DNA from: Candidatus Peribacteraceae bacterium
GTDB lineage: Bacteria; Patescibacteriota; Gracilibacteria; Peribacterales; Peribacteraceae
Length of the DNA: 64,000 nt
NCBI GenBank assembly: GCA_041666245.1
Contig: JBAYHG010000003.1
Coordinates: forward strand, 15,977-79,976
Direction: 5' to 3'
Shown here in pieces: positions 16,405-60,872 of this stretch (its first letter is position 1; every line of letters begins with the position of its first letter). The notes beneath the pieces were generated by a model that ran no database searches, had not been told where the DNA came from, and saw only the letters and a list, made by a program, of their open reading frames with translations. Position numbers and translations under genes: made by a program.

Positions 16405-16441
16405 GAGTTGGGGGTGTGACTACTATAGCTTCTTATGACAG

Positions 16442-16526
16442 AGGTGAGGAAGGTAAGGAAGGGTAGGAAGGTTTGTTTCATTGGGATTTTCTGCCGTTCC
16501 TTACGTTCCTGCCCTTCCTGCTTTCC
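16442..16526. repeat. Imperfect hairpin of 9-nt (T/G)NAGGAAGG units in a divergent promoter region
   Basis: The left arm is GAGGTGAGGAAGGTAAGGAAGGGTAGGAAGG, the loop is ~22 nt, and the right arm is CCGTTCCTTACGTTCCTGCCCTTCCTGCTTTCC. It lies between the starts of rmlA (16404, -) and rmlB (16546, +). Confidence 0.6.
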
Positions 16527-16545
16527 ATGCGCTACCATAGTCCGC

Positions 16546-32996: not shown

Positions 32997-33154
32997 GGCA
33001 CAGGGAAGGCCGGGAGCCGCGCAGGGAGAGTATACTGAAGAATGCGGGAGCCAACCGGAAAGTGTCCAAAACCGCCGGGAAAGCGATAATGTGTGGAAAT
33101 GGGAATTTTAAGCCGGCTCCGTGTCCTGTGTGCCTTCTGCTATGATCGGTGCTC

Positions 33155-33817
33155 ATGCGGTCCCTCGTCATTCTCGGCACCGGCGGGCAGAGTATCGATA
33201 TTCTCGATACCGTCCTGGAGCTGAATCGCATCGAACCTGTGTACGAGGTGCTTGGTTTCCTGGATGACGACGTTTCTCTCCACGGGTCTTCTGTCTTCAA
33301 CGTACCTGTGTTGGGTTCTCTGCAGCATGCAAAGGAGATGAATGCCGATGTGTTGTTCGTGAATGGTATCGGCAGTCCGGCGACGTTTTTCCGGAAAGCG
33401 GAAATCATCAGCGGCCTCGGCCTCCCCCGCGAGCGCTTTGCGACGATCATTCACCCGACAGCGTCGGTGTCCCGTCTGAGCAAAATCGGGAGCGGGACCG
33501 TTGTCCTGCAGCATGCGACCGTCGCGGCGCAAGCCGACGTGGGTGACCATGTCATGATCCTGCCTGGTGTGGTCATCTCCCATCACGATGTCATCGGGGA
33601 TTACTGCACGATTGCGGGAGGAGTGAACATCTCCGGGAGGGTGAAGATCTCATCGTCGGTCTACATCGGCACGAACGCTTGTATTCGTGAGGATGTCACC
33701 ATTGGTTCCGGCTCACTCATCGGAATGGGGGCTGTTGTCCGGCACGATGTTTCGGAGGGGCAGATCGTTGCCGGCAATCCTGCAGTCATTCTCCCTTCTC
33801 CGCGCCTTCCATCATGA
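33155..33817 (+). CDS. PglD/NeuD family sugar N/O-acetyltransferase (LbH)
   Basis: MRSLVILGTGGQSIDILDTV..VLGFLDDD..VNGIGSP..IHPTASVSRLSKIGSGTVVLQHATVAAQADVGDHVMILPGVVISHHDVIGDYCTIAGGVNISGRVKI... It has an N-terminal Rossmann-like subdomain plus hexapeptide repeats. Confidence 0.85.
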   Translation: MRSLVILGTGGQSIDILDTVLELNRIEPVYEVLGFLDDDVSLHGSSVFNVPVLGSLQHAKEMNADVLFVNGIGSPATFFRKAEIISGLGLPRERFATIIHPTASVSRLSKIGSGTVVLQHATVAAQADVGDHVMILPGVVISHHDVIGDYCTIAGGVNISGRVKISSSVYIGTNACIREDVTIGSGSLIGMGAVVRHDVSEGQIVAGNPAVILPSPRLPS

Positions 33818-34734
33818 CTCCCGTTCTCTCCATCGTCGTCCCTGTTCACAACGAAGCGGAAAGTCTCCCGGAGCTCCTCCGTCGCATCGACGCCTCTGTC
33901 CGTGCGGGGTTTCCGGAGTACGAGGTTATCCTCGTTGACGACGGGAGCACTGATGAAAGCTGGTCGGTGATCCGGAATGCAGCGAGTCACCATTCCTCGG
34001 TGAGAGGCATCCGTCTCAGCAGGAATATGGGAGAGCACATCGCTGTTTCCGCCGGACTGGACGCCGCTTCCGGGGAGCGCGTAGTTCTCATGGATGCGGA
34101 CCTGCAGGATCTGCCTGAGCACATTCCCGTTCTCGCCGCCGAACTCGGGCATGGGTATGACATGGTCTATGCCATCCGCAAACATCGGCAGCATGGCGTG
34201 CTCAAGCGCTGGACGTCGTCGTTCTTCTGGATGCTCCTGCGTCGCCTCACAGGTCTCGACATCCCTCCGGATCAGGCGACGCTGCGCATCATGACGAAGC
34301 GATTTCGCGACGCACTCGTCAGCCTTCCCGAGTCGAATCGGTTCATCTACGGCCTCACGGCGGTCATCGGATTCCCTCAGAAGGGGGTGGAGCTCGAGCA
34401 CGGGAAGCGTTTCGCCGGTCGGAGCAACTACAATCCCATGAAACTCCTCCTCCTCGCGGCGACCGGTGTTACGGCGCTCTCGAGCTTCCCCCTCCGCCTC
34501 GCATTCTTCGTCGGTCTTTTCCTCACCGCCACTTCTTCCATATTTGCGGTGGAGATCCTCGTGCAGAAGCTCGTCTTCAATTCGGTGAGCGAAGGATGGA
34601 CGTCCCTCATGGTCGCGATCATCTTCATGGGGGGAGTGCAGATGACCATGATCGGCATTCTCGGCGTGTACATGGGCAAGAATTACATGGAGTCCAAACA
34701 TCGTCCGCTCTATTTCATTTCCGATCGCACCTGA
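33814..34734 (+). CDS. ArnC/GtrB-type polyprenyl-phosphate (amino)sugar transferase (GT2 with two C-terminal TM helices)
   Basis: MTPVLSIVVPVHNEAESLPELLRRI..YEVILVDDGSTDES..RNMGEHIAVSAGL..LMDADLQDLPEHIP..plus two C-terminal TM helices and ..GILGVYMGKNYMESKHRPLYF. By eye it is collinear with E. coli ArnC ([21 protein letters not shown]..). Confidence 0.85.
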   Translation: MTPVLSIVVPVHNEAESLPELLRRIDASVRAGFPEYEVILVDDGSTDESWSVIRNAASHHSSVRGIRLSRNMGEHIAVSAGLDAASGERVVLMDADLQDLPEHIPVLAAELGHGYDMVYAIRKHRQHGVLKRWTSSFFWMLLRRLTGLDIPPDQATLRIMTKRFRDALVSLPESNRFIYGLTAVIGFPQKGVELEHGKRFAGRSNYNPMKLLLLAATGVTALSSFPLRLAFFVGLFLTATSSIFAVEILVQKLVFNSVSEGWTSLMVAIIFMGGVQMTMIGILGVYMGKNYMESKHRPLYFISDRT

Positions 34735-34735
34735 T

Positions 34736-35731
34736 ATGGATCTCGCAGGGAAGCACATCGTCGTCACGGGCGGAGCCGGGTTCATCGGCTCGCACCTCGT
34801 AGACGGTCTCCTCGCCGCGGGAGCGTCCGTCCGTGTCATCGACGATTTCTCCACCGGGACGCGCGAGAATCTCCGCGAAGCGGCCGCCCATCCCCGCTGC
34901 GAGATCGTCGAGGCCGACGTGTGTGACCGCTTGAGGATGATGGAGCTCACGAAGGGGATTGACGTCATCTACCACCTGGCCATCCAGTGCCTCCGCGTTT
35001 CGCTCGCTGATCCCTGGAGCAACCACCGCGTGAATGCGGAAGGGACGCTTTCCATGCTCGATGCCGCACGCACGAACGGTGTCAGGAAGTTCGTCTACGT
35101 CTCCTCCTCGGAGATCTACGGTACGGCCACCGTCGTCCCCATGACCGAGGAGCATCCGAAGGAGCCCATCACGGTGTACGGGGCTTCCAAGCTCGCGGGG
35201 GAGCTCTACACCAATGCCTATCACCGCACGTACGGCCTCCGGACCACGGTCATCCGCCCGTTCAATACCTACGGCCCCCGTGAGCATCACCTCGGCAAGA
35301 GCGCGGAGGTGATCCCGCGTTTCTACACGCTCATCACGCACAACCGTCCCATCACCGTGTTCGGCGACGGGTCGCAGACGCGTGATTTCACGTATGTCGC
35401 GGACACGGCGCGCGGCATGATCGCCGTCGGCGCATCGGATGCTCTCGATGGGGAGACCATCAACATCGCGCGCGGAGAAGAGGTGTCTGTTCTCGCCATT
35501 GCGGAGAAGCTGGCGGTACTCCTCGGGAAGAAACTCCAAGTCCGTCACCTCCCGGAGCGGCCGGGCGACGTGATGCGTCACTGGGCTTCGAACGCGAAAG
35601 CGAAAGAGAAGCTGGGGTTCGTCGCGGTGACGGACATCGACGAAGGGCTGCGCCGGTACGTCGACTGGTGCGCGAAGAGCGGCATCGACTGGGACAGCGT
35701 CGCAGCGTCATTTCCCGAAACCAACTGGTAG
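34736..35731 (+). CDS. NAD-dependent epimerase/dehydratase (extended SDR)
   Basis: GKHIVVTGGAGFIGSHLV..VIDDFSTGTRENL..VYVSSSEIYG..YGASKLAGE..RPFNTYGPRE..GDGSQTRDFTYVADT... Confidence 0.85.
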   Translation: MDLAGKHIVVTGGAGFIGSHLVDGLLAAGASVRVIDDFSTGTRENLREAAAHPRCEIVEADVCDRLRMMELTKGIDVIYHLAIQCLRVSLADPWSNHRVNAEGTLSMLDAARTNGVRKFVYVSSSEIYGTATVVPMTEEHPKEPITVYGASKLAGELYTNAYHRTYGLRTTVIRPFNTYGPREHHLGKSAEVIPRFYTLITHNRPITVFGDGSQTRDFTYVADTARGMIAVGASDALDGETINIARGEEVSVLAIAEKLAVLLGKKLQVRHLPERPGDVMRHWASNAKAKEKLGFVAVTDIDEGLRRYVDWCAKSGIDWDSVAASFPETNW

Positions 35732-35733
35732 CC

Positions 35734-36450
35734 ATGAGAACCTTCTGCTTCACGGTTGATACGGAGTGGTCCCCGCCGGAGGCGATGGCCGATCTGCAGG
35801 CGCTGTTCGACGCTGCGGGTGTGCCCGTCACGTTCTTCTGCACCGATGATGTTCCTGCGATCACCGGGAAGCGGCACGAGATCGCCCTGCACCCCAACAT
35901 TCATTCGCTCGACGAGGCATCGGCGAAGATTGAAGCACTCAAACGGCACTATCCCTCCGCCCGCGGTATCCGCACGCACACGCTCTTCATGAGTTCGCGG
36001 CTGAATGCCGTCTTCCATGCGCAGGGACTCTCGTACCAATCCAATGCCTACACGGGGGAACCGATGCAGAGCGCCGTGGATTTCGGGGAAGGGGTCAAAA
36101 GCCTCCCCATTTTCTACATGGATCACGTCAATCTCACGAATCCCTCGATCAATCCCGCGTTCACACTCGACGCCTTCGATCTCACGCGCGACGGGGCGTA
36201 CATCTTCGACTTCCATCCGGTGATTTCTTACGTCAATTGCCACAGTCTTGCGCAGTACAGTGAGGCCAAGCTCTGCTACCATGATGCCGTGGAGCTCCGC
36301 TCACTCCGGCGTCCCGGCCAGCGGGGCACGCGCGATCTCCTCGTCGATTTGCTGGCCTACGTCCGTGACGAGAAGATCCCCACGCTCACCTGCTTCGATC
36401 TCCTCTCCCGCCATGCAAAAGATTCCTCTCACGAAGCCGCTTCTCGGTGA
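35734..36450 (+). CDS. Polysaccharide deacetylase-like protein (weak; ArnD/NodB-superfamily candidate)
   Basis: MRTFCFTVDTEWSPPEAMADLQALFDAAGVPVTFFCT..HEIALHPN..IRTHTLF... A D-T-E metal-site-like motif is present. The 3' end overlaps the next gene by 38 nt. Confidence 0.5.
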   Translation: MRTFCFTVDTEWSPPEAMADLQALFDAAGVPVTFFCTDDVPAITGKRHEIALHPNIHSLDEASAKIEALKRHYPSARGIRTHTLFMSSRLNAVFHAQGLSYQSNAYTGEPMQSAVDFGEGVKSLPIFYMDHVNLTNPSINPAFTLDAFDLTRDGAYIFDFHPVISYVNCHSLAQYSEAKLCYHDAVELRSLRRPGQRGTRDLLVDLLAYVRDEKIPTLTCFDLLSRHAKDSSHEAASR

Positions 36451-37534
36451 TGAAGAGACTGCACTCGTTTCCGAGGTGCTCTCATCGGGCTGGCTGACGC
36501 AGGGGGCGAAAGTCCGGGAATTTGAGCAGGCGGTTGCCGCCTCCACCGGGGCGAAGGAGGGGATCGCAACCACCAGCTGCACAACATCACTCTTCTCCTC
36601 CCTGAAGTTGCTCGGAATCGGGCCGGGTGACGAGGTCATCGTCCCGTCGCTCTCCTTCATCGCGTCGGCCAATTGCATCGTGCATGCCGGAGCGACGCCG
36701 GTGTTCTGCGAAGTGGAGGAGGACACCTACAACATCGATCCATCCCATATCGAGCCGCTCATCACGTCGCGCACGAAAGCGATCCTTCCCGTGCACCAGC
36801 TCGGGATTCCGTGCGACATTGACGCGATCTATGCGCTCGCCCGCTCGCATCGTCTCGCAGTTGTGGAAGATGCGGCCTGCGCCATCGGTTCGTCATACAA
36901 AGGTCGAAAGATCGGATCGGGGGGGATCGTGTGTTTCAGCTTCCATCCGCGCAAACTGATCTCCACCGGGGAAGGCGGCATGATCATGACGGACGATCCA
37001 GCGTTCGCCGTCCGCGCACGTCAATTCCGAGCCCACGGCATGAGCGCGGACGATCTCAAGCGTCACGCGGCCGGCACCGTCACCATCGAGGAGTATCCGG
37101 AGGTCGGGTACAACTTCCGCATGACCGACATCCAGGCGGCGCTTGGCATCGTTCAGATGCAGCGACTGCCTTCGATTTTGCACCGGAGGACGGAACTACG
37201 CCGCGTTTTCGATGCCGCGCTCGGTTCCATCTCCTGGCTGCGGCTTCCACGCATTCCATCCGAATCGGAGTGGAACGTGCAGTCCTACATTGTGCGGCTG
37301 CTGCCCGGAGCGCCGCTCGATCAGCGGACCCTCATGCAGGCTCTTCTGGACAAAGGGATCGCGAGCAGACGCGGGCTCATGGCGTCACATCTGGAATCGT
37401 GTTACCGGCATGCGGCCGCGGCGCTTCCGGTCACCGAAGAACTGACGACGCACACCATCCTCCTTCCGTTCTACCCGCAGATGACGGAGACGGAGACGGA
37501 CCGGGTACTGGATGTCGTCCACTCGTTCGCATGA
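36413..37534 (+). CDS. DegT/DnrJ/EryC1/StrS family sugar aminotransferase (copy 2)
   Basis: MQKIPLTKPLLGDEETALVSEVLSSGWLTQGAKVREFEQAVA..VIVPSLSFIASAN..FSFHPRKLISTGEGGMI..GYNFRMTDIQAALG... Confidence 0.9.
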   Translation: MQKIPLTKPLLGDEETALVSEVLSSGWLTQGAKVREFEQAVAASTGAKEGIATTSCTTSLFSSLKLLGIGPGDEVIVPSLSFIASANCIVHAGATPVFCEVEEDTYNIDPSHIEPLITSRTKAILPVHQLGIPCDIDAIYALARSHRLAVVEDAACAIGSSYKGRKIGSGGIVCFSFHPRKLISTGEGGMIMTDDPAFAVRARQFRAHGMSADDLKRHAAGTVTIEEYPEVGYNFRMTDIQAALGIVQMQRLPSILHRRTELRRVFDAALGSISWLRLPRIPSESEWNVQSYIVRLLPGAPLDQRTLMQALLDKGIASRRGLMASHLESCYRHAAAALPVTEELTTHTILLPFYPQMTETETDRVLDVVHSFA

Positions 37535-38268
37535 AGGATACGGCGTACGCACTATCGGCGGCCGTGGAGTCGCGGCATTGGTGGTACCAGGGGCGGGCGG
37601 CGATTCTTTCATCGCTCCTGCAACGGTTCCTGCCACCTTCCGCTTCCGTCCCGCGGATCCTCGATATCGGTTGCGGAACCGGAAACGACCTGCAGTTCCT
37701 CTCGCGCTTCGGGGGCGTCACGGGGCTCGATTTCCACGAGAGCGCCGTCGCCGCCTGCAGGGGATTGGGATTCGATGTCGTTCAGGGTGATGCCACCGCC
37801 CTCCCGTTTCCCGACCGGTCTTTCGATGTGGTCTGTTCCCTCGATGTTCTCAATGGCATCCGGGAAGACGGCGTCGCCGTGGCTGAGGCAATGAGAGTGC
37901 TTCGTCCAGGCGGAATCTTCCTCGTCACCGCGGGGGCAGGTCCATTGCTCTGGGGGAAAACCGATGTGCTTTCGCAGCACTGCCGGCGGTATCGCCGTCG
38001 AGAGTTTCTTGCTCTGCTGGGGGGAGAAGGGCGGACGATTCTTTTCCGCTCGCACTTCAATACCTTCCTCTTCCCGCTCGCGTTCCTCGCGCGCATGGCC
38101 GAACGGCTGTATCCGTCCCACAGCGATCAGATCCCAGGTCTCTCTGTTCCCCCGTTTCCGTTCAACGGGATGCTCCGGACGATCTTCGCTTCCGAACGGG
38201 TCCCGCTTCGTTTCTTCCCTCTGCCCTTCGGGGTTTCCATCGTGGCAATCGTGAAGAAAGAGAGGTAG
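37531..38268 (+). CDS. Class I SAM-dependent methyltransferase
   Basis: ..HWWYQGRAAIL..RILDIGCGTGNDLQFL..GDATALPFPDRSFDVVCSLDVL..LRPGGIFLV... ATGA overlap with the aminotransferase. Confidence 0.85.
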   Translation: MKDTAYALSAAVESRHWWYQGRAAILSSLLQRFLPPSASVPRILDIGCGTGNDLQFLSRFGGVTGLDFHESAVAACRGLGFDVVQGDATALPFPDRSFDVVCSLDVLNGIREDGVAVAEAMRVLRPGGIFLVTAGAGPLLWGKTDVLSQHCRRYRRREFLALLGGEGRTILFRSHFNTFLFPLAFLARMAERLYPSHSDQIPGLSVPPFPFNGMLRTIFASERVPLRFFPLPFGVSIVAIVKKER

Positions 38269-38315: not shown

Positions 38316-38732
38316 ATGGAGCAAATTGTCCCTGTCCGGAAGGGCTCCGTGACTTATGCCCTCTTCTTTCGAGGCCGCCCGGCGGCGCCCGGCGGCGTGC
38401 GTTTCCTCACGGAACCGTTCGATGAGTTTCAGACGGGGGTGATGGAGAGACCGGCGGGAAGTCGCGTGAAGCCGCATACGCATCCCCGTTTCGACAGGAC
38501 GGTGAAGGGGATGAGTGAATTCCTCTATGTGGAGAAGGGGTCGATCCGTGTGACAGTATTCGATGAGGAGTGGAAGGCGCTCCGGGAGGAGACACTTGAA
38601 CCGGGGGATTTCCTCCTCTTCTTCCGTGGCGGTCATGGCATCGATGTTCTCACCGATTGCCGCATGATCGAAGTGAAGCAGGGGCCCTTCGTGGGCGATG
38701 CCACAGTGAAGTTCTTCCCTCCGGAGTCATGA
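38316..38732 (+). CDS. Cupin-fold protein (WbuC-like / possible NDP-ketosugar isomerase or epimerase)
   Basis: 138 aa: ..GSRVKPHTHPRFDRTVKGMSEFLYVEKGSIRVTVFDEE..LEPGDFLLFFRGGHGIDVL.. shows the two-motif cupin pattern (H-x-H ... G-x-H). Confidence 0.6.
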   Translation: MEQIVPVRKGSVTYALFFRGRPAAPGGVRFLTEPFDEFQTGVMERPAGSRVKPHTHPRFDRTVKGMSEFLYVEKGSIRVTVFDEEWKALREETLEPGDFLLFFRGGHGIDVLTDCRMIEVKQGPFVGDATVKFFPPES

Positions 38733-39841
38733 AGGTTCCCGTGAACATGCCGGTCATTTCTCCGGAAGCGAAGGCTGCCGTTCTCGAAGCGCTGGAGAGC
38801 GGGTGGATTTCCTCTGCCGGTCCGGCTGTCACACGTTTTGAGCAGGAGTTCGCGCGCTGCGTGGGCATGCAGCACGGCATTGCGGTTATGAACGGGACGG
38901 CGGCCCTGCACCTCGCTCTCGCCAGTCTCGGCATCGGTCGGGGGGATGAAGTCATCGTTCCCGATTTCACGATGATCGCGACGGTGACGGCGGTGCTCTA
39001 CACCGGAGCCCAACCCGTCTTCGTCGATGTTGAGCGCGAGACCTTCGCCATGGATCCGGCGCTCCTGGAGGCCGCCATCACTCCGCGAACCAAGGCGATC
39101 CTCCCCGTGCACCTCTTCGGGCACAGCGCCGATATGGATCCGATTCTGGCGATCGCGAAAGCCCACGGTCTCGCGGTCATCGAGGATGCGGCCGAAGTGC
39201 ACGGTGCCACGTACCGCGGAAAGAAGTGCGGGTCGATGGGGATCGCCAATTGCTTCAGCTTCTACGCCAATAAAATCATCACGACGGGGGAGGGGGGGAT
39301 GGTGGTCACTGACGATGCGGCGATCGCCGAACACGCCCGACGCCTGCGCGATCTCGCTCACAGTCCCGGGCGACGGTTCTGGCACACCGAGCTGGGATTC
39401 AACTACCGCATGACGAATTTGCAGGCGGCTGTCGGACTCGGTGAACTTTCCCATCTCGATGATTATGTCGAAAAGAAGCAGTGGATGGCGAAGCGGTACG
39501 CGGAGGAGGTATCGGGGATTCCCGGTTTGCGTCTTCCCGTGACCAAGAGCTACGCCACGAACGTCTACTGGATGTACGCGGTCCTCGTGGAGGATGAGCT
39601 GGGGATGACGAGAGACGCATTGCGGGCACGTCTCCTGGAGCGCGGCGTGGATACGCGCGACTTCTTCTACCCGTGCCACAGTCAGCCCTTCCTCAAGGAC
39701 CATCCCCAGGCGACGGGCTCCTTCCCCGTCAGCGAAGATGTCGCGCAGCGAGGATTCTACCTTCCATCGGGGCTCGCTCTGACGGAGGAGCAGCTGCTCT
39801 ATACATGCGAAGCTCTCCGGTCGGTCATCAGGGGCAGGTAG
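38729..39841 (+). CDS. DegT/DnrJ/EryC1/StrS family sugar aminotransferase (copy 3)
   Basis: MKVPVNMPVISPEAKAAVLEALESGWISSAGPAVTRFEQEFA..VIVPDFTMIATV..FSFYANKIITTGEGGMV..GFNYRMTNLQAAVG... ATGA overlap with the cupin gene. Confidence 0.9.
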   Translation: MKVPVNMPVISPEAKAAVLEALESGWISSAGPAVTRFEQEFARCVGMQHGIAVMNGTAALHLALASLGIGRGDEVIVPDFTMIATVTAVLYTGAQPVFVDVERETFAMDPALLEAAITPRTKAILPVHLFGHSADMDPILAIAKAHGLAVIEDAAEVHGATYRGKKCGSMGIANCFSFYANKIITTGEGGMVVTDDAAIAEHARRLRDLAHSPGRRFWHTELGFNYRMTNLQAAVGLGELSHLDDYVEKKQWMAKRYAEEVSGIPGLRLPVTKSYATNVYWMYAVLVEDELGMTRDALRARLLERGVDTRDFFYPCHSQPFLKDHPQATGSFPVSEDVAQRGFYLPSGLALTEEQLLYTCEALRSVIRGR

Positions 39842-39896
39842 AGTTGTTCTGTCTGACAGTTCCTGTAGACTCCCGCTGCTTGTTTCGAGCGTTTCT

Positions 39897-40625
39897 ATGG
39901 TTCTCACGAACGCCAGTGTTTCTGTTGTGCTTCCTTCCTACAACGAAAGGGAGAGCATCGGCGAAGCCGTCTCGAGGATCGTCGGCGCGTTGGGAGATAC
40001 CCTGAAAGAAATCATCATCGTGGATGACAACAGTCCTGACCGCACGTGGGAGGTGGTGGAGTCACTCGGCGAACCGCGTTGCCGTGTCATTCGCCGGATG
40101 GACAAGCGGGGCTTGGCTTCGGCACTCGCGGACGGGACACGTGCCGCAATAGGCGACATCATCGTATGGCTGGATTGCGATTTGGGAATCCCGCCGGAGG
40201 ACATTCTGAAACTCGTGGAGAAGCTGGATACATACGATGTCGCCGTCGGCTCACGGTACGTGCCCGGTGGGATGGATACGAGACCGGCGTGGAGGGCGTT
40301 CCTCAGTCTGGTGTTCAACTGCTACACCAGGATCGTCCTCTGGAAGCGTTTCTGGGACTGGACATCCGGGTTTGCCGCGGCACGCCGGAATGTCCTTGAG
40401 CGCATCCCTCTCTCCGAGCAGGGGTTCGGCGAGTATTTCGTGGAGTGGGTGTACCGGTGCCTGCGAAGCGGCGTGCGCATCATAGAAGTTCCCTATCGGT
40501 ACGGGCTGCGCAAGAACGGTACGTCGAAAACTGATGGCAATCTGTGGGTGTTCCTGAGGCTCAGCGTGCGCTATGCGCTGCGGGTCCTTGCTGTTAGGAT
40601 GGGGGGCGGTTCACATCATGCATGA
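39897..40625 (+). CDS. Dpm1-like GT2 (polyprenol-phosphate mannose/hexose synthase type)
   Basis: VSVVLPSYNERESIGEAV..IIIVDDNSPDRTWEVV..RMDKRGLASALADG..WLDCDLG..GSRYVPGG..SGFAAARR... Confidence 0.85.
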   Translation: MVLTNASVSVVLPSYNERESIGEAVSRIVGALGDTLKEIIIVDDNSPDRTWEVVESLGEPRCRVIRRMDKRGLASALADGTRAAIGDIIVWLDCDLGIPPEDILKLVEKLDTYDVAVGSRYVPGGMDTRPAWRAFLSLVFNCYTRIVLWKRFWDWTSGFAAARRNVLERIPLSEQGFGEYFVEWVYRCLRSGVRIIEVPYRYGLRKNGTSKTDGNLWVFLRLSVRYALRVLAVRMGGGSHHA

Positions 40626-41884
40626 TTCCTCCAGCCTCAACCCGTCCGGCTCCTCCCACGAAGACCATTTCGCGATGCAGAGTGTGTGGCAGCACGGAGA
40701 TCGAATCGCTCTACTCCCTCGGTGATCTGTACGTATCCGATTTCGTCCCGGATCCGCAGCAGGGGGTGCGCGCTCCTCTGGAGATGGTCATGTGCGGGGG
40801 GTGCTCCCTCGTGCAACTGCGCCATTCTGCACCCCAGGAGCTTCTCTACAGTCGGTTCTACTGGTACCGCTCGGGCGTAACCGACACCATGCGCAAAGCG
40901 CTTCGGGACATCACGGAGGACATCGAGCGGCGCGTACCTCTCGTGGCGGGAGACATCGTCTTGGATATCGGATCGAATGACGGGACGATGCTGCGCACAT
41001 TCGCGGTGCCTGGACTCGTGAAAGTGGGTGTGGAGCCGGCATCCAACCTTGCCGAGGAGGGCCGGCAGGGACTCGAGTACTTCATCAACGATTTCTGGAA
41101 CTATGAACAGTACAAGAAGATCGTTCCGAAGAAGGCCAAGGTCATCACGGCGATCGGCATGTTCTACGACATGGACGATCCCAATCAATTCATCCGCGAC
41201 GCGGCCTCCGCGCTGGAGGAGGACGGGGTCTTCGTCGCACAGCTCATGTGTCTCAAGAACATGCTCGACACGAACGACGTGGGAAACATCTGCCACGAGC
41301 ATCTGGAGTACTATTCCCTCTCTGCGTTGGAGTTCCTGTTCGAGAAGAACGGCTTCACGCTCATCGATATCGACCACAACGAAGTGAATGGGGGGAGTTA
41401 CCGCGTGTATGCGGGGCTCACGGGGGGACGGCCTCCCGCGATGCCGGGGGCGGCGGAGCGTCTCGCACGGTACCGTGCCGAGGAGAAGGGGCTGACATCC
41501 AAGAACGTTCACAAGGAATTCTTCGCGAGGATCGAGGAAAACAAAAGGAAATGCGTCGAGTTCATTCGCGGGGAGGTATCGAAAGGCAAACGGGTGTGGG
41601 TGTACGGCGCCTCCACGAAGGGCAACACCATCCTGCAGTACTACGGGCTTGACCACACCCTCATCGAGTGCGCTTCGGAGCGTAGCCCGCAGAAGTGGGG
41701 GAAATTCACGGTGGGAACCGGCATTCCCATTGTCTCGGAGGAAGATGCGCGCGCGGCCAGGCCTGATTACTTCCTGGTCCTGCCCTACGCGTTTTTCAAC
41801 GAGTTCTACCGTCGTGAGGAGTCCTGGAGGAAGAGCGGTGGAACGTTCATCGTTCCCCTCCCGGAATTCCGGATTGTTCCATGA
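40622..41884 (+). CDS. NDP-sugar C-methyltransferase (TylCIII/TcaB9-like: Zn-ribbon + SAM-MT + C-terminal C-MT domain)
   Basis: ..CRVCGSTEIESLYSLGDLYVSDF..MVMCGGCSLVQL..YWYRSGVTDTMRKAL..VLDIGSNDGTML..CHEHLEYYSL..GGSYRVYA..VWVYGASTKGNTILQY..FLVLPYAFFNEF... The four-Cys N-terminal domain and the whole domain order match sugar 3-C-methyltransferases as I know them. Confidence 0.75.
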   Translation: MIPPASTRPAPPTKTISRCRVCGSTEIESLYSLGDLYVSDFVPDPQQGVRAPLEMVMCGGCSLVQLRHSAPQELLYSRFYWYRSGVTDTMRKALRDITEDIERRVPLVAGDIVLDIGSNDGTMLRTFAVPGLVKVGVEPASNLAEEGRQGLEYFINDFWNYEQYKKIVPKKAKVITAIGMFYDMDDPNQFIRDAASALEEDGVFVAQLMCLKNMLDTNDVGNICHEHLEYYSLSALEFLFEKNGFTLIDIDHNEVNGGSYRVYAGLTGGRPPAMPGAAERLARYRAEEKGLTSKNVHKEFFARIEENKRKCVEFIRGEVSKGKRVWVYGASTKGNTILQYYGLDHTLIECASERSPQKWGKFTVGTGIPIVSEEDARAARPDYFLVLPYAFFNEFYRREESWRKSGGTFIVPLPEFRIVP

Positions 41885-42861
41885 AGAAGAAAGCTCTCAT
41901 CCTCGGCGTGACCGGCCAGGACGGCAGCTACCTCACCGAGCTCCTCCTGGAGAAAGGATACGAGGTGCATGGTCTCATCCGACGTTCGGCGACGGGGAAC
42001 ACGAAAAACATCGAGCACCTCCTTGACCGTATCACGCTCCATCGCGGCGATTTGGCCGATACGACGTCCCTCTACCGCACGATCCAGAGCGTCAGTCCCA
42101 GCGAGATCTACAACGAGGCTGATCAGGACCATGCGGGCTGGAGCTACGATCTGGTGGATTACGCGTCCGACATCACGGGGAGCGCACCCGGCCGCATTCT
42201 GGAGATCATCCGGCAGCTCGATCCGACCATCCGGTTCTTCCAGCCTCTCACGTCCAACATGTTCGGCCTCGCGGAAGGGGTCACGCAGAATGAGCAGACT
42301 CCGCTCCGTCCCCAGAGTCCGTACGCCTGCGCCAAGGTGTATGCGCTCATGCTGACCCGTTACTATCGCGAGGTACACAAGATGTTCGCGTCCACGGCGA
42401 TCTTCTTCAACCATGAGTCTCCGCGACGGACCGAGTCGTACGTCACCCGCAAAATCACGAAGGCGGCCGTGCGGATTTCCCTCGGGCTTCAGAAGAAACT
42501 CCGTCTCGGTGACGTGAGTGCCCGGATCGATTTCGGGTTTGCCGGAGAGTACATGGAGGCGGCGTGGCACATCCTGCAGCTCGACCGACCGGATGATTTC
42601 GTCATCGGGACGGGAGAGGCGCATTCGGTTCAGGAGTTTGCGGAAGAAGCTTTCACGCAATTGGGTCTGAAGGCCTCGGACTACATTGAGATCGATCCGT
42701 CGCTCCTCCGCCCGGGGAAGACGAGCGCGCTCATCGCCGACTATGCCAAAGCGAAGAAGGCATTTGGGTACGAGCCCAAGGTGAAATTCCGGGATCTCAT
42801 TAAGATCATGATTCAGCACGATCTAGAGATCGAGAAACGTCAGATGGGACAGCAGAAGTAG
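41881..42861 (+). CDS. Divergent GDP-mannose 4,6-dehydratase paralog (catalytic Glu position is Asn)
   Basis: [75 protein letters not shown]... It is Gmd-like throughout, but has TSN where gmd at 45141 has SSE. ATGA overlap with the C-methyltransferase. Confidence 0.75.
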   Translation: MKKKALILGVTGQDGSYLTELLLEKGYEVHGLIRRSATGNTKNIEHLLDRITLHRGDLADTTSLYRTIQSVSPSEIYNEADQDHAGWSYDLVDYASDITGSAPGRILEIIRQLDPTIRFFQPLTSNMFGLAEGVTQNEQTPLRPQSPYACAKVYALMLTRYYREVHKMFASTAIFFNHESPRRTESYVTRKITKAAVRISLGLQKKLRLGDVSARIDFGFAGEYMEAAWHILQLDRPDDFVIGTGEAHSVQEFAEEAFTQLGLKASDYIEIDPSLLRPGKTSALIADYAKAKKAFGYEPKVKFRDLIKIMIQHDLEIEKRQMGQQK

Positions 42862-42867
42862 TGCGGA

Positions 42868-43683
42868 TTACTCGTGTTTCGCTTCGGCGTGAGTGTCTTG
42901 CCAATGGCGCATCATCTCTTCTTCCATTCTTCTGCGGATGAAAGCAGGCAGCTGATCCGGCGCGGTGAGAACAATCCCTTTCTCCTTCAACCAACCACAA
43001 ATCATTGCTTCCACCCTCTCCGCCACGAGTCGTTCGGCGTCCCAGTACTTCATGCCGAGGCGCTGACACCGCACGGGATCGTCATTCAGATCCCCCCGCC
43101 TCGCCTCCGTTCGCGCGATGCGCTCCAATGGCGGCACGATTTCTCCATCGAGGAAGATGCCATCGATGTAGTACTGAAGGAGTTCTTCCTGCGGGATGTT
43201 CATGAGCTTCTGATCAATGCCTTCGCCCGTAGTTCTTTCGAAAATCCGATAGAAAAATTCCTCATTCGTGGCAACACGCAGTGCACCGGTCGGATCTGTT
43301 TCCTGATGCATTGACTCCAATGTTGTCGTGAGTCCGCCCTGTTCTTCAGCCGTGAAATCATCCGGCTTTCGTTGCATGTGTTTCTCCGCGTCGTGGATGA
43401 GGGCAAATTTTTCCATCCTCTCACGCTGTGCAACCGGCAATTCCAACGCCTGTCCCACGACATGCATCGCCACGGCTTGTCCGGCCTGATGTTTGACGAC
43501 ATTGTTCCAGCCTTCCCAGCGCTCTCCCACCCGGCGAGGACGTTTTCCAAGCTTCGCCTTACGGAGGAGAAGTGTCATTTCCTCTCGGTGTGCATTGCGG
43601 ACGAAGTCGAGCCAGTAGCGCAGGCGGATTTGAATCTGCCTCTCCGGATCTCTGTCGGCCGTTTGGCTCTGTTGTACTTCCAT
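42868..43683 (-). CDS. HD-domain-like hypothetical protein
   Basis: 271 aa: ..NNVVKHQAGQAVAMHVVGQ..MEKFALIHDAEKH.. shows the H...HD pattern. It is visibly less GC-rich than its neighbours and is the only minus-strand gene in a long plus-strand run. Confidence 0.55.
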   Translation of the reverse strand: MEVQQSQTADRDPERQIQIRLRYWLDFVRNAHREEMTLLLRKAKLGKRPRRVGERWEGWNNVVKHQAGQAVAMHVVGQALELPVAQRERMEKFALIHDAEKHMQRKPDDFTAEEQGGLTTTLESMHQETDPTGALRVATNEEFFYRIFERTTGEGIDQKLMNIPQEELLQYYIDGIFLDGEIVPPLERIARTEARRGDLNDDPVRCQRLGMKYWDAERLVAERVEAMICGWLKEKGIVLTAPDQLPAFIRRRMEEEMMRHWQDTHAEAKHE

Positions 43684-43685
43684 GT

Positions 43686-43724
43686 TTGTATATTACAATA
43701 ATTCCGATATTAAGCAATTATTGC
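43686..43724. promoter_or_regulatory. AT-rich divergent promoter region with two short palindromes
   Basis: TTGTA-TAT-TACAA lies at 43686..43698 and GCAAT-T-ATTGC at 43714..43724. Both sit within the most AT-rich stretch of the window, between divergent starts at 43683 (-) and 43833 (+). Confidence 0.35.
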
Positions 43725-43832
43725 GATACTCGATCGTCCGCGCGGCTCCCCGCTCCGGCGGTATCTAAATGTCATCGACACCCCCTATGGGATGCCATAG
43801 ACTCGCTGCACCCTATTTTTCCGATACTTTCC

Positions 43833-44702
43833 ATGCAGAAAAAAGGAACAATCTTCTTCGTCAGGCTGCGCCGCGCGCTCGCCCCCTCTTTGCGTTTCAT
43901 CCTCGAACACTGCGGGCCGTTGCGGTTCTTGGGCGTGACGCTGATGTCCTGGTACCTGAAGCCCGTCGTCCAGTGGGACGGTCACACGGTTTCCGTGGAC
44001 CCGACGGATTTCGGAGTGACGTTCGAGCTGGAATCGACGGGGGAGTACGAGGCGACGACCATGTCGCTCTGCAAGAAGCTGTTGCAGCCGGGAATGGTCT
44101 TCGTGGATGTCGGAGCCAATATCGGACTCTTCACGTTGATGGCGGCACGACAGGTTGGGCCGGCAGGACATGTGTATTCCTTCGAGCCGGGTGCGGCCAA
44201 TTGCGTTCTCCTGAGGAAGAACGTGGAGCAGAACGGGTACCACAACGTGACGCCCGTCCAGAAGGCGGTGACCGACCGCAGCGGATCCGCCATCCTGCAC
44301 CAGTCCGGTTTCAACAAGGCCGATCACCGTACGTACCACGTGTCGAAAGGGCGCAAGCAGGTCGCGATCGAATGTGTCTCTTTGGACGAGTACTTCCCGC
44401 CTGATGCACGCATCGACGTGATCAAGATGGACATCGAAGGAGCGGAAGGAGCGGCTCTTCGCGGTATGCAGCGCATCCTGCGTTCCCCGCATCCTCCGAA
44501 GCTCGTCATGGAATGCTGGCCGCCCATGCTCGTCAAAGCGGGGACGGATCCACTCCGGCTCCTGCAGTCACTGGAGGAGATGGGGTTTGCTCTCTCTCTG
44601 ATCGACGATGCTGCTGATGTCGTCACACCGCTCGATGCCGCCTCCATTCTGAAGATCTGCGAGGAACATGACGTCGGAAACGTTCTCTGCGTCCGTCGCT
44701 GA
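43833..44702 (+). CDS. FkbM family methyltransferase
   Basis: ..GMVFVDVGANIGLFTLMAARQVGPAGHVYSFEPGAANCVLLRKNVEQNGYHNVTPVQKAV..IDVIKMDIEGAEGAALRGM... The ATG at 43833 (MQKKGTIF) is preferred over the track start at 43572. Confidence 0.85.
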   Translation: MQKKGTIFFVRLRRALAPSLRFILEHCGPLRFLGVTLMSWYLKPVVQWDGHTVSVDPTDFGVTFELESTGEYEATTMSLCKKLLQPGMVFVDVGANIGLFTLMAARQVGPAGHVYSFEPGAANCVLLRKNVEQNGYHNVTPVQKAVTDRSGSAILHQSGFNKADHRTYHVSKGRKQVAIECVSLDEYFPPDARIDVIKMDIEGAEGAALRGMQRILRSPHPPKLVMECWPPMLVKAGTDPLRLLQSLEEMGFALSLIDDAADVVTPLDAASILKICEEHDVGNVLCVRR

Positions 44703-45103
44703 TGACGCATGATTCCTCCATGCCCCGGCTGAGGGTTCCGGTCATACAGTTCACCCAGTTCCTCCTGAGTGGCGGGGCGGCGGCGGTCCTTGCCATTGCC
44801 GTCTATGCTCTGCTTCTGCAAGCCGGCCTGTGGTACGTCTACGCTTCCGTGTGCAGCGACGGTGTGGGTCTCCTCACTCAGTTCTTCCTGAACAAGTATC
44901 TGGTCTTCCGGAAACGGGAACGCATGATTCCCCATGCTGTCCGTTACGCTGTCGTTCAGGCGGGGAATACGATCTTTCAGGCGGCTTTGGTCTATGTGTT
45001 CGTGGAATTCGCCGGCGTCGACAAAATCCTCGCGCGGATCCTCTCCATCGGCGTTTTTGTTCCCGTGAATTTCCTCCTCTACAAGTTCTTTGTGTACGTG
45101 TGA
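44702..45103 (+). CDS. GtrA family membrane protein (lipid-linked sugar translocation candidate)
   Basis: ..VIQFTQFLLSGGAAAVLAIAVYALL..FFLNKYLVFRKRE..VPVNFLLYKFFVYV. It has four TM helices and the GtrA-type NKY-x-VF motif. Confidence 0.8.
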   Translation: MTHDSSMPRLRVPVIQFTQFLLSGGAAAVLAIAVYALLLQAGLWYVYASVCSDGVGLLTQFFLNKYLVFRKRERMIPHAVRYAVVQAGNTIFQAALVYVFVEFAGVDKILARILSIGVFVPVNFLLYKFFVYV

Positions 45104-46221: not shown

Positions 46222-48672
46222 ATGCGCGTTCGCCGTTTGCCAGATTGGCAGGTATTCCTTGGTACTCATACCCTTTTCGTCGCACTGGCGCTCGTGCCGT
46301 TTCTTTCCGGTGCCTGCCTGTATTCCGCAATGGGCATTTGGCATTCGTACCCCTTCTTCGAGCTCTTCTCGTTTCACAACCTTCTCTCCGGCGAAGTCTT
46401 CATGAATCGGCTGGGTATGAATGGATTTCCTTCCTTCGTCCCTGTCGGCTTCTCCCTCCATCCGCTCACCTATGTCTTCAATACTTTCCTGCCGCCCTTC
46501 ACCGATTTGCACTGGTTCGTCTTCACGATCATGGCTGCGGGTGGTGTGCTCTGTTCTCTCCTCCTCCGTCGTCTGGGCATTTCCAGGTTGGGGGCGATGG
46601 TCGGAGGAGCCTGCTACGTGACGGGGAGCTGGTGGCTGACGACCACGCTGGATTATGCCCCTTCCATGACCATGCTCCCGCTGATTCCCATGGTCCTCCT
46701 GCAGAGTCGCACGCGTCCCGTCCTCGCGACGTTCTGGGGTGCGCTCCTCTCCGGATACATCTGGTTCGGCGTGAATGCGCAGATGTCGCTCATGATATTC
46801 ACCGCATTTGGTGTCGGAGCCCTTGCTCTGGCGATGCGTGAATCCGTACGAGGCTGGCGCGCTGCACTGCGCCCGGTCGTCGTCCTCTTCCTGAGTCTTG
46901 CTGCGGGCACCCTTCTCGGGATTCCCAAGGTCATTCCCTCGCTGGTCTACGGCAGTCTCTCCTGGCGAGCCGGAGGGCTCTCTCTTGCAGAGGCGGGGGC
47001 GGGCGGGCTCCGTCCGCTCACAGCCGTAACCTATCTCTTTCCTTACATCAGCTTCCCATTCCTGAATTTCGGCTGTGATTTGCTCCAAGTGTACATCGGA
47101 GCGTTCGGATTCATGTTCCTGCTTGTTGGTTTTTGGATAGCCTTCTCCCGTCGTTCGAACGGTGCCGTGTCAGGTCTCGTTTCCTTACGGTGGTGGGTCG
47201 TTGCCTACGTTGTAGTTCTTGCTTTCGCGTTCTATCGATCGCCTCTTGTCGCTCTCCTGCACTCATTTCCACCCTTCTCGTTCTTCCGCGGTCCGGGGCG
47301 ATGGACAATACTCAGCAGCTTCGTTGCCGCACCGATCATCGGGATGGCGTTTGACGCTCTCGTACAGGGAAGAGTGGAACGCATGCGACGGGTGTTCGCG
47401 CTGCTCTTCGGAGTCGTTGCCGCGTTCATCAGCATCGCGTTCGCGGTGGTTCAACTGTCGTTGCAGTTCTTCTCCGGGGCGCTGATCACCATTTTCCAGC
47501 GCTACTTTGCTTACTTTCATTCCTCGCTGCATCTGGGGCCGCCCCTCTCCTACTACGAGACGTTCGTCGAACGGAGGATTCATGAGTTCGCCCTCTCCCC
47601 CATTTTCCTGCAGCCGCGCACGTTCTTTCCGTTCATCTCCATCGTGATTCTGGCTGTCGTCCTGCAGGATCGCGTGTGGGAGAAGGCCCGTCACAGAGCC
47701 GTGTTGCTCGTGACATGCAGCCTCCTGACGTCCGCCCTCACTCTCATTTGGTTTGATCGTCCTTTTCCAAGAAATGCTCTTCCGAAAGGAAACCCAGTGG
47801 AAGTGTTCTTGCAGGGGCATCCGGGAACTGTCCTCGATGTCTTCTCGAACGGCACGGCCGCGGAGCTCGCCCCAGGGTATCGTTTTTCGAAAGGGGATGA
47901 GCTCGTCTGGACGTTCGTTCATCACGTTCCAAATACCAATCTTCTCTCCGGCATCCATATGCTGGATTACTTCGACAACCTCGCATCGCGGCGTCCGTCC
48001 GCTCTCGCATCGTGGGTCGGGGCTGCAACCCTGCCCACGCCGTCCGCTTACCAACTCGTTGCATTCCCCGGGACCACGGCAGACAAGATCAGGGAGTTCG
48101 GTCGCCGGAAGGATGTTCTCGATATGCAGGGCGTGCGCTACCTCACGAGCTCTTTCTCTCTGAACGGTGCCTCCCTGCGCAACGTCTTCGAAACCCGTGT
48201 GACATCCGCGAATATTCCACTGTACATATACGAGAATCCCGCTGCACGGCCGAGTGTGTACTTCGCCGACAGTGTCGAGACGATGGCGGAAGACGAGAGC
48301 GAAGCACTGGAGCGTATTTTCCATGAACAGTGGCACGGGAGACGATCTCTCCTCGAGTGTGAGCCTGCCTGTTCGCTGCAAACTTCCAGCGGGAGGGGGG
48401 AGATAGAGACGGTTGAAGATCGTCCGCAATTCCTCACACTTCAGACACAGGCCGCAGAGCCGCAGTGGCTCGTGGTGACGATTCCCCGGCTTCCCGGATG
48501 GGAGGTTCGGATTGATGGTGAAGTGGCGAATTCCGTCTATGCCAATGCCGCCTTCTTCGGCATCCCGGTTCCTGCAGGTTCACACACCGTGACGCTTCGA
48601 TATTCCGTTCCCTTGCTCCTGAAAGAAGGCGTGGCGCGTCTCCTCACGGGTGGATACAACGATGTGTTCTAG
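46222..48672 (+). CDS. YfhO-like large membrane protein (GT-C-fold glycosyltransferase candidate)
   Basis: 816 aa. About 13 TM helices are followed by a soluble region, a late TM helix, and a C-terminus ..VVTIPRLPGWEVRIDGEVANSVYANAAFFGIPVPAGSHTVTLRYS.. that resembles the YfhO C-terminal signature. Confidence 0.7.
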   Translation: MRVRRLPDWQVFLGTHTLFVALALVPFLSGACLYSAMGIWHSYPFFELFSFHNLLSGEVFMNRLGMNGFPSFVPVGFSLHPLTYVFNTFLPPFTDLHWFVFTIMAAGGVLCSLLLRRLGISRLGAMVGGACYVTGSWWLTTTLDYAPSMTMLPLIPMVLLQSRTRPVLATFWGALLSGYIWFGVNAQMSLMIFTAFGVGALALAMRESVRGWRAALRPVVVLFLSLAAGTLLGIPKVIPSLVYGSLSWRAGGLSLAEAGAGGLRPLTAVTYLFPYISFPFLNFGCDLLQVYIGAFGFMFLLVGFWIAFSRRSNGAVSGLVSLRWWVVAYVVVLAFAFYRSPLVALLHSFPPFSFFRGPGRWTILSSFVAAPIIGMAFDALVQGRVERMRRVFALLFGVVAAFISIAFAVVQLSLQFFSGALITIFQRYFAYFHSSLHLGPPLSYYETFVERRIHEFALSPIFLQPRTFFPFISIVILAVVLQDRVWEKARHRAVLLVTCSLLTSALTLIWFDRPFPRNALPKGNPVEVFLQGHPGTVLDVFSNGTAAELAPGYRFSKGDELVWTFVHHVPNTNLLSGIHMLDYFDNLASRRPSALASWVGAATLPTPSAYQLVAFPGTTADKIREFGRRKDVLDMQGVRYLTSSFSLNGASLRNVFETRVTSANIPLYIYENPAARPSVYFADSVETMAEDESEALERIFHEQWHGRRSLLECEPACSLQTSSGRGEIETVEDRPQFLTLQTQAAEPQWLVVTIPRLPGWEVRIDGEVANSVYANAAFFGIPVPAGSHTVTLRYSVPLLLKEGVARLLTGGYNDVF

Positions 48673-60791: not shown

Positions 60792-60872
60792 GACATGACT
60801 CTAGGATGTCACCATGTCTTGTCAACAATATTCCTATACCCGTCTCGGCGCGGGCTGCGGTATGCTGCAAGC

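Follow-up and report, generated by a model that had tools for sequence, protein, structure and literature searches.

A gene cassette in a Peribacteraceae genome predicted to build a GDP-linked, C-methyl-branched and probably aminated 6-deoxyhexose for a polyprenyl-phosphate carrier

To our knowledge, sugars with a C-methyl branch have been described almost exclusively in antibiotics and in a small number of lipopolysaccharide (LPS) structures, with routes that always run by way of dTDP-sugars or are untested models. The C-methyltransferases (CMTs) TylCIII/EryBIII, MtmC (PDB 4RV9), TcaB9 (3NDI) and KijD1 (5T64) share a three-domain architecture and are presumed to methylate beside a 4-keto group; all characterised TylCIII-type enzymes that we know of act on dTDP-sugars. 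MtmC is bifunctional and couples C-methylation with 4-ketoreduction, and TcaB9 and EvaC methylate an amine-bearing C3. Here we analyse a cassette that encodes a CMT of the same architecture and presumed chemistry, together with a small cupin, a sugar aminotransferase, a family 2 glycosyltransferase (GT2b) and a Gmd-derived extended short-chain dehydrogenase/reductase (SDR), here called GmdL. The cassette lies in a 64,000-nt stretch of the genome of a Candidatus Peribacteraceae bacterium (contig JBAYHG010000003.1, positions 15,977 to 79,976 of the forward strand), which is referred to below as the window. We propose, with a probability of roughly 60%, that the cassette core would convert GDP-mannose into a C-methyl-branched, most likely aminated, 6-deoxyhexose and deliver it to a polyprenyl-phosphate carrier for extracytoplasmic glycosylation.

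The cassette CMT differs from its antibiotic relatives in sequence, in partners and in setting. It is ~30-35% identical to them, whereas its own subfamily is conserved at 56-81% across Candidate Phyla Radiation (CPR) bacteria, archaea and Proteobacteria. It stands among GDP-type genes, partnered or fused with a Gmd-derived SDR and a DPMS-like GT2, and the context is that of surface glycans and not of secondary metabolites. For the LPS sugar virenose (6-deoxy-3-C-methylgulose) of Coxiella burnetii, a GDP route was proposed in silico that runs from Gmd to a TylCIII-like CMT and then to 4-ketoreduction (PMC3539893, PMC3204966). That route shares with our reading of the cassette Gmd, a TylCIII-like CMT and 4-ketoreduction on a GDP-linked sugar. 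Its reductase, however, is a GMER/Rmd candidate and not a Gmd paralog devoid of the catalytic Glu, and nothing in it corresponds to the aminotransferase, the cupin or the lipid-phosphate GT2. With its reported 42-44% identity to TylCIII (PMC3539893, PMC3204966), the Coxiella methyltransferase falls in a different subfamily from the cassette CMT. Apart from the Coxiella model, we found in the literature no proposal of a GDP-linked C-methyl sugar and no characterised GDP-sugar C-methyltransferase; neither a characterised cluster with this gene set nor kansosamine genes were found.

Other parts of the cassette have counterparts in amino-sugar and lipid-carrier systems. Per-like transamination of Gmd-derived GDP-4-keto-6-deoxymannose, as proposed here, is the route to GDP-perosamine (Gmd plus Per/RfbE; Caulobacter Per, 3BN1/3DR4) and to the GDP-mycosamine of polyene macrolides, but the cassette aminotransferase is always co-translated with an uncharacterised cupin. 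The logic of making a sugar, transferring it to a lipid, flipping it and handing it to a GT-C glycosyltransferase is that of Arn (ArnB/ArnC/ArnE-F/ArnT), GtrA/GtrB/GtrC, GtcA/CsbB/YfhO and the Pyrococcus DPMS (5MLZ). In contrast to Arn and Gtr, the donor would be GDP-linked and the sugar C-methyl-branched, the GT2 is free of transmembrane (TM) segments and accompanied by a separate GtrA gene, and the host is a CPR bacterium. Sibirosamine and kansosamine-type 4-amino-4,6-dideoxy-3-C-methylhexoses unite a 3-C-methyl group, an amino group and O- or N-methylation in one natural sugar, features that match the cassette's set of a CMT, an aminotransferase, an FkbM and a class I methyltransferase. Sibirosamine is thought to be dTDP-derived and is made by an actinomycete antibiotic cluster, which is not known to involve a Gmd paralog or a lipid carrier.

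All five open reading frames (ORFs) of the block at 38316-42861 are present on the plus strand and have a coding-type GC content at third codon positions (0.71-0.78). As a sequence-only reading of the window had described, they are joined by ATGA overlaps or short spacers: the overlaps lie between cupin stop and aminotransferase start (38729), between GT2b and CMT (40622) and between CMT and GmdL (41881), and a 55-nt spacer separates the aminotransferase from GT2b. The CMT scored 40.9 bits against Methyltransf_13 (PF08421; cut-off 31.3), its S-adenosylmethionine (SAM) domain, with the motif VLDIGSNDG, 56.7 bits against Methyltransf_23 (PF13489), and its C-terminal domain 133.7 bits against Methyltransf_14 (PF08484). 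The same reading had assigned the protein to the TylCIII/TcaB9 type with a Zn ribbon, a SAM domain and a C-terminal domain, and had named absence of the last as a reason to abandon the assignment; the hidden Markov model search detected that domain, and Pfam and full-length PDB matches agree on the type. If the ATG at 40622 is used, the Zn-ribbon cysteines C19, C22, C58 and C61 are all present. PDB alignments run end to end for MtmC (4rv9, 188 bits), KijD1 (5t64, 136 bits) and TcaB9 (~131 bits), and the active-site motif is HEH, as in MtmC, KijD1 having DEH.

Several independent lines of gene context point to a GDP-linked rather than a dTDP-linked substrate for this CMT. These are the Per-like aminotransferase, the DPMS-like GT2, the presence of Gmd and its paralog, and a Nudix gene that stands between CMT and GmdL in the non-Peribacteria loci; the Nudix family includes GDP-sugar hydrolases. 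No Nudix homolog of the kind seen in these relatives occurs within the 64,000-nt window. At 15673-17493 the window also carries a minus-strand gene for an RmlA-like nucleotidyltransferase (TIGR01207, 257 bits, below the cut-off), divergent from a gene for RmlB (dTDP-glucose 4,6-dehydratase; 393 bits, above the cut-off), so that the glycan island holds a source of dTDP-6-deoxyhexoses as well.

The gene that directly follows the CMT was compared with the true Gmd of the same locus. GmdL matched the Pfam family GDP_Man_Dehyd with 327 bits, and its TIGR01472 score of 342.7 bits is under the Gmd equivalog cut-off of 415. In the catalytic Thr/Ser-x-Glu of Gmd, the Glu serves as the base that deprotonates C5 and brings about dehydration. 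GmdL reads TSNMFG where Gmd has SSELFG, with Asn126 at the Glu position; as the catalytic Glu is replaced, GmdL would not be a 4,6-dehydratase, and the residue together with the sub-threshold score ruled out the gene as a second dehydratase. The Tyr-xxx-Lys (SPYAxAK), the RR loop, NHESPRR and the extended-SDR NADP site are retained. With NADP(H) and Tyr/Lys in place but no dehydration base, C4 oxidation or reduction would be the only chemistry left, and GmdL is predicted to be a C4 oxidoreductase that partners the CMT. An assignment to the Rmd family of solved structure was rejected, as no PDB match named Rmd was seen down to E 1e-20 and GmdL nests with Gmd in the tree. The true Gmd (TIGR01472, 526 bits, above the cut-off of 415; PF16363, 468 bits; motif SSELFG) sits 2.3 kb downstream of GmdL, in the run FkbM - GtrA - Gmd - YfhO-like GT-C, and a whole-genome scan found it to be the sole Gmd of this 1.32-Mb, 97.5%-complete genome. 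The sequence-only reading had seen the CMT coupled to a GDP-mannose-dehydratase-like enzyme rather than to an RmlB and took this as a hint of a GDP-linked sugar. Its GDP context holds, and RmlB is indeed 22 kb away from the CMT; the adjoining gene, with Asn for Glu, is not a dehydratase, however, and an RmlA/RmlB pair does exist in the window.

A tree was built from 195 sequences, among them the 150 best cluster representatives found in 1.8 billion proteins; it placed 64 of its 69 non-Glu sequences in a single clade (support 1.0), and the remaining 5 were scattered singly among Glu-type Gmd. Within the clade, the catalytic position is occupied by Asn (38), Thr (20), His (3), Met (2) or Leu (1). 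In the related loci, GmdL has Asn in 31 cases and His in one, and the true Gmd has Glu in 20/20. The substitutions A81D, S83D and A122P are clade-wide, and the 64 members show little or no variation in Tyr-xxx-Lys, the catalytic Thr/Ser, the glycine-rich NADP motif, the RR loop and NHESPRR. D81/D83 were considered as a marker of an amino-sugar pocket and then dropped, as they extend over the whole clade, including Thr-type members without a cupin, and so do not discriminate. Inteins (Intein_splicing, LAGLIDADG) were noted near the catalytic region of Gmd or Gmd-like proteins of 630-750 aa (P0148, P0155 and P0228).

Orthologs of the CMT (56-81% identity) were found in 36 genomes of several phyla. 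The bacterial bins are labelled Peribacteria/Peregrinibacteria, Elusimicrobia, Delta- and Gammaproteobacteria, Bacteriovoracaceae and Sorangium, and the archaeal ones Methanosarcinales, Methanomicrobiales, Woesearchaeota and Nanoarchaeota. CMT and GmdL occur together in 32 of the 36 loci, GT2b lies directly upstream in most, and the cupin-aminotransferase pair and a separate true Gmd are usually near. The order cupin-aminotransferase-GT2b-CMT-GmdL is kept in archaea, where a PMT_2-type GT-C gene is found upstream of the cupin. Three proteins (P0004, P0029 and P0043) are GT2-CMT fusions, in a protein from Nanoarchaeia (P0121) the CMT is fused to a GmdL-clade domain, and the Thr-type clade members P0134, P0139 and P0176 directly follow a CMT. 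Such adjacency and fusions, Thr-type members included, suggest that CMT-GmdL is a general two-enzyme module. GmdL was present in 7/7 checked CMT genomes and in 0/10 CMT-less relatives, and the true Gmd in 17/17.

Among 151 Peribacterales genomes, 68 carry the cupin, in single copy except for one genome with two, and 20 carry an orthologous CMT; the cupin is also present in 19 of these 20, against a background of 45%. Ten genomes with the cupin and without the CMT all have a cupin-aminotransferase-GT2 group plus GtrA, one true Gmd and no GmdL, which we refer to as the base module. The base-module GT2 of these genomes is only 38-40% identical to GT2b, which is the best match to it within the genome studied here. 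In CMT genomes with an unlinked cupin-aminotransferase pair, this pair has no GT2 of its own. This nested occurrence suggests that GT2b-CMT-GmdL is an add-on that would modify the product of an older Gmd/cupin/aminotransferase/GT2 amino-sugar module. Six other species of the genus to which the host belongs (G013, G017, G128, G137, G146 and G148) have neither the cupin nor any CMT match, and a seventh (G067) lacks the cupin and has a distant CMT paralog only (33% identity); the cassette is thus accessory and variable inside one genus. Many Peribacterales genomes hold 1-3 distant CMT paralogs (28-40% identity). We infer that the cassette is horizontally spread.

Additional genes recur around some of these loci. 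In L003, L005, L007, L008, L014 and L015, the surroundings of the cassette include a NodU/CmcH-type carbamoyltransferase (586 aa) together with a GDSL/SGNH protein, so that the sugar of these Peribacteria species may be carbamoylated or acylated; neither gene adjoins the cassette in our window. Thr-type CMT-GmdL pairs were also seen amid small ORFs without family matches in L077 (a 52.8-kb Logan contig, SRR24472973) and L084. L077 bears in addition an anti-repressor of phage type (Bro-N/BstA) along with a phage DNA methyltransferase. A PHROGs scan of the virus-like contigs was only partly informative, and the pairs on them may be virus or mobile-element copies of the C-methyl sugar module.

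The lipid-carrier logic of the locus had been overlooked by the sequence-only reading, which was largely right apart from this and from its assignment of the dehydratase. GT2b matched Glycos_transf_2 (PF00535) with 116 bits, and in the PDB it came closest to the catalytic domain, and to that part alone, of the Pyrococcus furiosus Dol-P-Man synthase (5mlz, 142 bits), followed by ArnC with 52-55 bits. Its best NCBIfam matches, AglJ, Dol-P-hexose transferase and ArnC, were all far below the equivalog cut-offs. Hydropathy analysis detected no hydrophobic or TM segment in GT2b, and the protein is predicted to be a soluble GDP-sugar:polyprenyl-phosphate glycosyltransferase. Since GT2b is of the polyprenyl-phosphate sugar synthase type, the block would go beyond a nucleotide-sugar route and form the front half of an Arn/Gtr-like lipid-carrier system. 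The GtrA protein carries hydrophobic segments, as seen by hydropathy, and a GtrA gene accompanies the cassette in 12 related loci and the base module in 10/10 loci; it is predicted to be a partner or flippase for the lipid-linked sugar. For the YfhO-like protein, hydropathy indicated ~10-11 TM segments and, after them, a soluble C-terminal portion, and orthologs (43-53%) come after Gmd in loci L003 and L004. This protein is predicted to be a GT-C enzyme that takes the sugar off its lipid carrier and passes it to an extracytoplasmic acceptor. PDB sequence searches were uninformative for both membrane proteins. All three components of extracytoplasmic glycosylation, the GT2, GtrA and the YfhO-like GT-C, are encoded together. 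Elsewhere in the window, DPMS-like GT2 genes lie at 53610-54680 (minus strand) and 60795-61583 (plus strand), one of them fused to GtrA/DPMS_TM (PF00535 + PF04138) and the other 36% identical to the base-module GT2, so that at least 4 polyprenyl-phosphate-sugar-synthase-like genes are found within 30 kb of this 1.3-Mb genome.

The aminotransferase, the third DegT copy of the window, had been expected to supply the amine, and our searches agree. It scored 415 bits against DegT_DnrJ_EryC1 (PF01041) and matched best in the PDB the Caulobacter perosamine synthase (3bn1/3dr4/3dr7; 324 bits over residues 4-364), and the Schiff-base lysine for pyridoxal phosphate (PLP) is kept in FSF(Y/F)xNKIITTGEGG. 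Its top NCBIfam match, the LegC family (GDP-sugar), reached 343 bits and is below the cut-off. Closest to GDP-perosamine synthase, the protein is best described as a sugar aminotransferase. Perosamine and mycosamine synthases (C4 versus C3) are reported to be inseparable by sequence (PMC8944477), and C3 or C4 amination is not readable from the sequence of this aminotransferase.

The cupin is more divergent from described families. It scored 23.8 bits against Cupin_2, below the cut-off of 27.2, and was rejected as a WbuC with 28.2 bits against TIGR04366 (cut-off 42). H54, H56, E68 and H107, which form the HxH...E...H ligand set of metal cupins, are invariant in an alignment of 23 sequences. A Foldseek search with its AlphaFold2 model (pLDDT 90) placed FdtD/FdtA on top, weakly (E ~0.02, TM-score 0.4-0.47). 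An FdtA-like assignment was rejected: there was no PF05523 match, a comparison by hhalign of the cupin alignment with a newly made one of FdtA yielded no significant match (probability 3.3%), and no FdtA-family gene was found in the genome. PDB searches with the single sequence and with a profile gave nothing informative; as to RmlC, which was not scored directly, Pfam gave only the weak Cupin_2 match. The suggestion of the sequence-only reading that the cupin is a 3,4-ketoisomerase or epimerase fared less clearly than that for the aminotransferase: action on GDP-4-keto-6-deoxymannose in either role stays a candidate function, and membership in the FdtA profile family was not borne out. A GDP-specific 3,4-ketoisomerase is not known, which is a gap in mycosamine biosynthesis (PMC8944477).

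Taken as one pathway, the cassette would work as follows. The CMT and GmdL would form an obligate pair, in which the CMT would add a methyl group beside the 4-keto group, by analogy on C3. The simplest role of GmdL would be 4-ketoreduction of the methylated product; alternatively, it may oxidise C4 transiently and re-reduce it around the methylation. The co-translated cupin and Per-like aminotransferase would put an amino group on C3 or C4 of the GDP-keto-6-deoxyhexose. By analogy with Arn and Gtr/CsbB-YfhO, GT2b would take the completed sugar off GDP and load it onto polyprenyl phosphate, GtrA would aid its membrane handling or flipping, and the YfhO-like GT-C would attach it to a surface polymer. 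The FkbM and class I methyltransferases are possible sources of O- or N-methyl groups.

Several observations weigh against this reading. CMT-GmdL is found without the cupin in a Bacteriovoracaceae genome (L031) and in the Thr-type loci, so that the pair can work alone, and the co-occurrence of CMT and cupin could in part reflect physical linkage instead of functional dependence. The cupin fails the tests for membership in known sugar isomerase and epimerase families. The CMT family has been shown to act on dTDP-sugars only, and RmlA/RmlB are in the window. Furthermore, one and the same keto group would be contested by a plain 4-ketoreductase and a C4 aminotransferase, and a linear pathway therefore needs an extra assumption, namely C3 amination after ketoisomerisation with GmdL re-oxidising C4. 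In the linear route that uses all six conserved enzymes, the cupin would be a ketoisomerase, amination would take place at C3 and yield a mycosamine-type sugar, and GmdL would act in a 'borrowing-hydrogen' manner: with bound NADP+ it would re-oxidise C4 of GDP-3-amino-3,6-dideoxyhexose, the CMT would methylate the amine-bearing C3, and the hydride would be returned, to give a lipid-linked 3-amino-3-C-methyl-3,6-dideoxyhexose. We regard this exact scheme as doubtful, and no other single linear pathway that uses every conserved enzyme could be constructed. A simpler alternative is that two sugars are made in parallel, with Gmd, the CMT and GmdL (as an NADPH-dependent 4-ketoreductase) yielding a non-aminated GDP-6-deoxy-3-C-methylhexose of the evalose or virenose kind for loading by GT2b, and the cupin and aminotransferase yielding a GDP-perosamine-type sugar for another transferase. 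The cupin-less pairs of L031 and the Thr-type loci fit this, as do the fusion proteins, in which GT2b is joined or adjacent to the CMT and not to the aminotransferase; MtmC, the closest solved homolog of the CMT, couples C-methylation with 4-ketoreduction, the CMT has the HEH of MtmC (3-hydroxy substrates) and not the DEH of KijD1, and the aminotransferase is nearest to a C4 enzyme. Two separate sugars nevertheless appear somewhat unlikely to us, given that 19/20 CMT genomes also have the cupin-aminotransferase pair against a background of 45%, that the amino-sugar module of CMT genomes has lost its own lipid-phosphate GT2, and that the five-gene order is translationally coupled here and conserved in archaea.

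Two further explanations concern single enzymes. The CMT might act on dTDP-4-keto-6-deoxy-D-glucose from RmlA/RmlB, with the neighbouring GDP-type genes serving other sugars; the RmlA-like/RmlB pair, whose RmlB scores above its cut-off, and the use of dTDP-sugars by all characterised members of the family are in line with this. Across phyla, however, the CMT travels with Gmd, GmdL, the Per-like aminotransferase, the DPMS-like GT2 and Nudix and not with RmlB, from which it is 22 kb distant in the window, and in P0121 it is fused to a Gmd-derived domain, so that we consider a dTDP substrate very improbable. GmdL, for its part, has lost the catalytic Glu and is fused to or adjoins the CMT, as might be expected of a dead pseudoenzyme that is merely a scaffold or regulator of the CMT or Gmd. 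It has hardly the look of one: Tyr-xxx-Lys, Thr/Ser, the NADP motif, the RR loop and NHESPRR are kept across the 64 clade members, and the new clade-wide D81, D83 and P122 suggest an active site that was reshaped and not decayed.

The features of the locus and its surroundings are collected in Table 1. For the aminotransferase, the longest ORF begins at 38657, and the ATG at 38729 was taken as the start. Upstream of the cupin, the stop of the second DegT copy and the start of the class I methyltransferase at 37531 share an ATGA, and a spacer of 47 nt lies between the latter gene and the cupin. PDB matches of the class I methyltransferase are generic only, and it could not be assigned to a sugar N-methyltransferase family on their basis; relatives with 30-34% identity lie near the cassette in archaeal and Peribacteria loci. 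It is a candidate sugar N- or O-methyltransferase whose membership in the cassette is uncertain. An Arn-like run occupies 33149-37534, with genes for a PglD-type acetyltransferase, a GT2, an extended SDR, a WbmS-like deacetylase and the second DegT; since this run is translationally coupled to the methyltransferase at 37531, the cassette has a second lipid-linked amino-sugar module immediately next to it. Downstream of GmdL, the minus-strand gene had no Pfam or NCBIfam match. Within 42868-43860, this gene is followed by an AT-rich intergenic stretch with the short palindromes TTGTATATTACAA and GCAATTATTGC, ahead of the probable FkbM start at 43833. The stretch probably acts as a divergent promoter region, so that the cassette would be divided into two transcription units. 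Orthologs of the FkbM-family methyltransferase (62-65% identity), a candidate O-methyltransferase, are found in loci L003, L004 and L016.

Table 1. Genes of the cassette and its immediate surroundings (positions in the window)
Feature	Coordinates	Strand	Size (aa)	Matches and remarks
Class I SAM methyltransferase	37531..38268	+	245	Methyltransf_11/25 matches; coupled to upstream DegT
Small cupin	38316..38732	+	138	Cupin_2 weak; metal-cupin signature
PLP sugar aminotransferase, DegT copy 3, GDP-perosamine-synthase-like	38729..39841	+		PF01041
GT2b, DPMS/Dpm1-like catalytic domain	39897..40625	+	242	PF00535
TylCIII/MtmC/TcaB9-type C-methyltransferase (CMT)	40622..41884	+	420	PF08421 + PF13489 + PF08484
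GmdL, Gmd-derived extended SDR	41881..42861	+		GDP_Man_Dehyd; Asn126 at Glu position
Gene without assigned function, interrupts plus-strand run	42868..43683	-	271	62% relative after GmdL in locus L010
FkbM-family methyltransferase	43833..44702	+		PF05050, 81 bits; TIGR01444, 101 bits; probable ATG start 43833
GtrA/DPMS-TM-like four-helix membrane protein, free-standing	44702..45103	+		PF04138, 80.5 bits
[quoted passage not shown]
YfhO-like polytopic membrane protein	46222..48672	+	816	PF09586 C-terminal match, 41.7 bits

The component families of the cassette are known, and its overall logic is like that of Arn and Gtr. What is new is the GDP context of the CMT, the Gmd clade that lacks the Glu, the orphan cupin, the predicted end point on a lipid carrier and the spread in ultra-small bacteria and archaea. 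Two orphan enzyme families are defined, a monophyletic Glu-less Gmd clade always accompanied by a CMT and a metal-type cupin always accompanied by a Per-like aminotransferase. For the GDP-sugar 3,4-ketoisomerase absent from mycosamine biosynthesis (PMC8944477), this cupin family offers a concrete candidate. The cassette enzymes could also serve glycodiversification with GDP-sugars. If our reading is true, there would be a widespread GDP-based route to C-methyl sugars that ends on a lipid carrier. The cell surfaces of CPR and DPANN organisms, which are believed to mediate an episymbiotic way of life, are almost wholly uncharted, and it is in the minimal genomes of CPR bacteria and in DPANN-labelled archaeal bins that this cassette is found.

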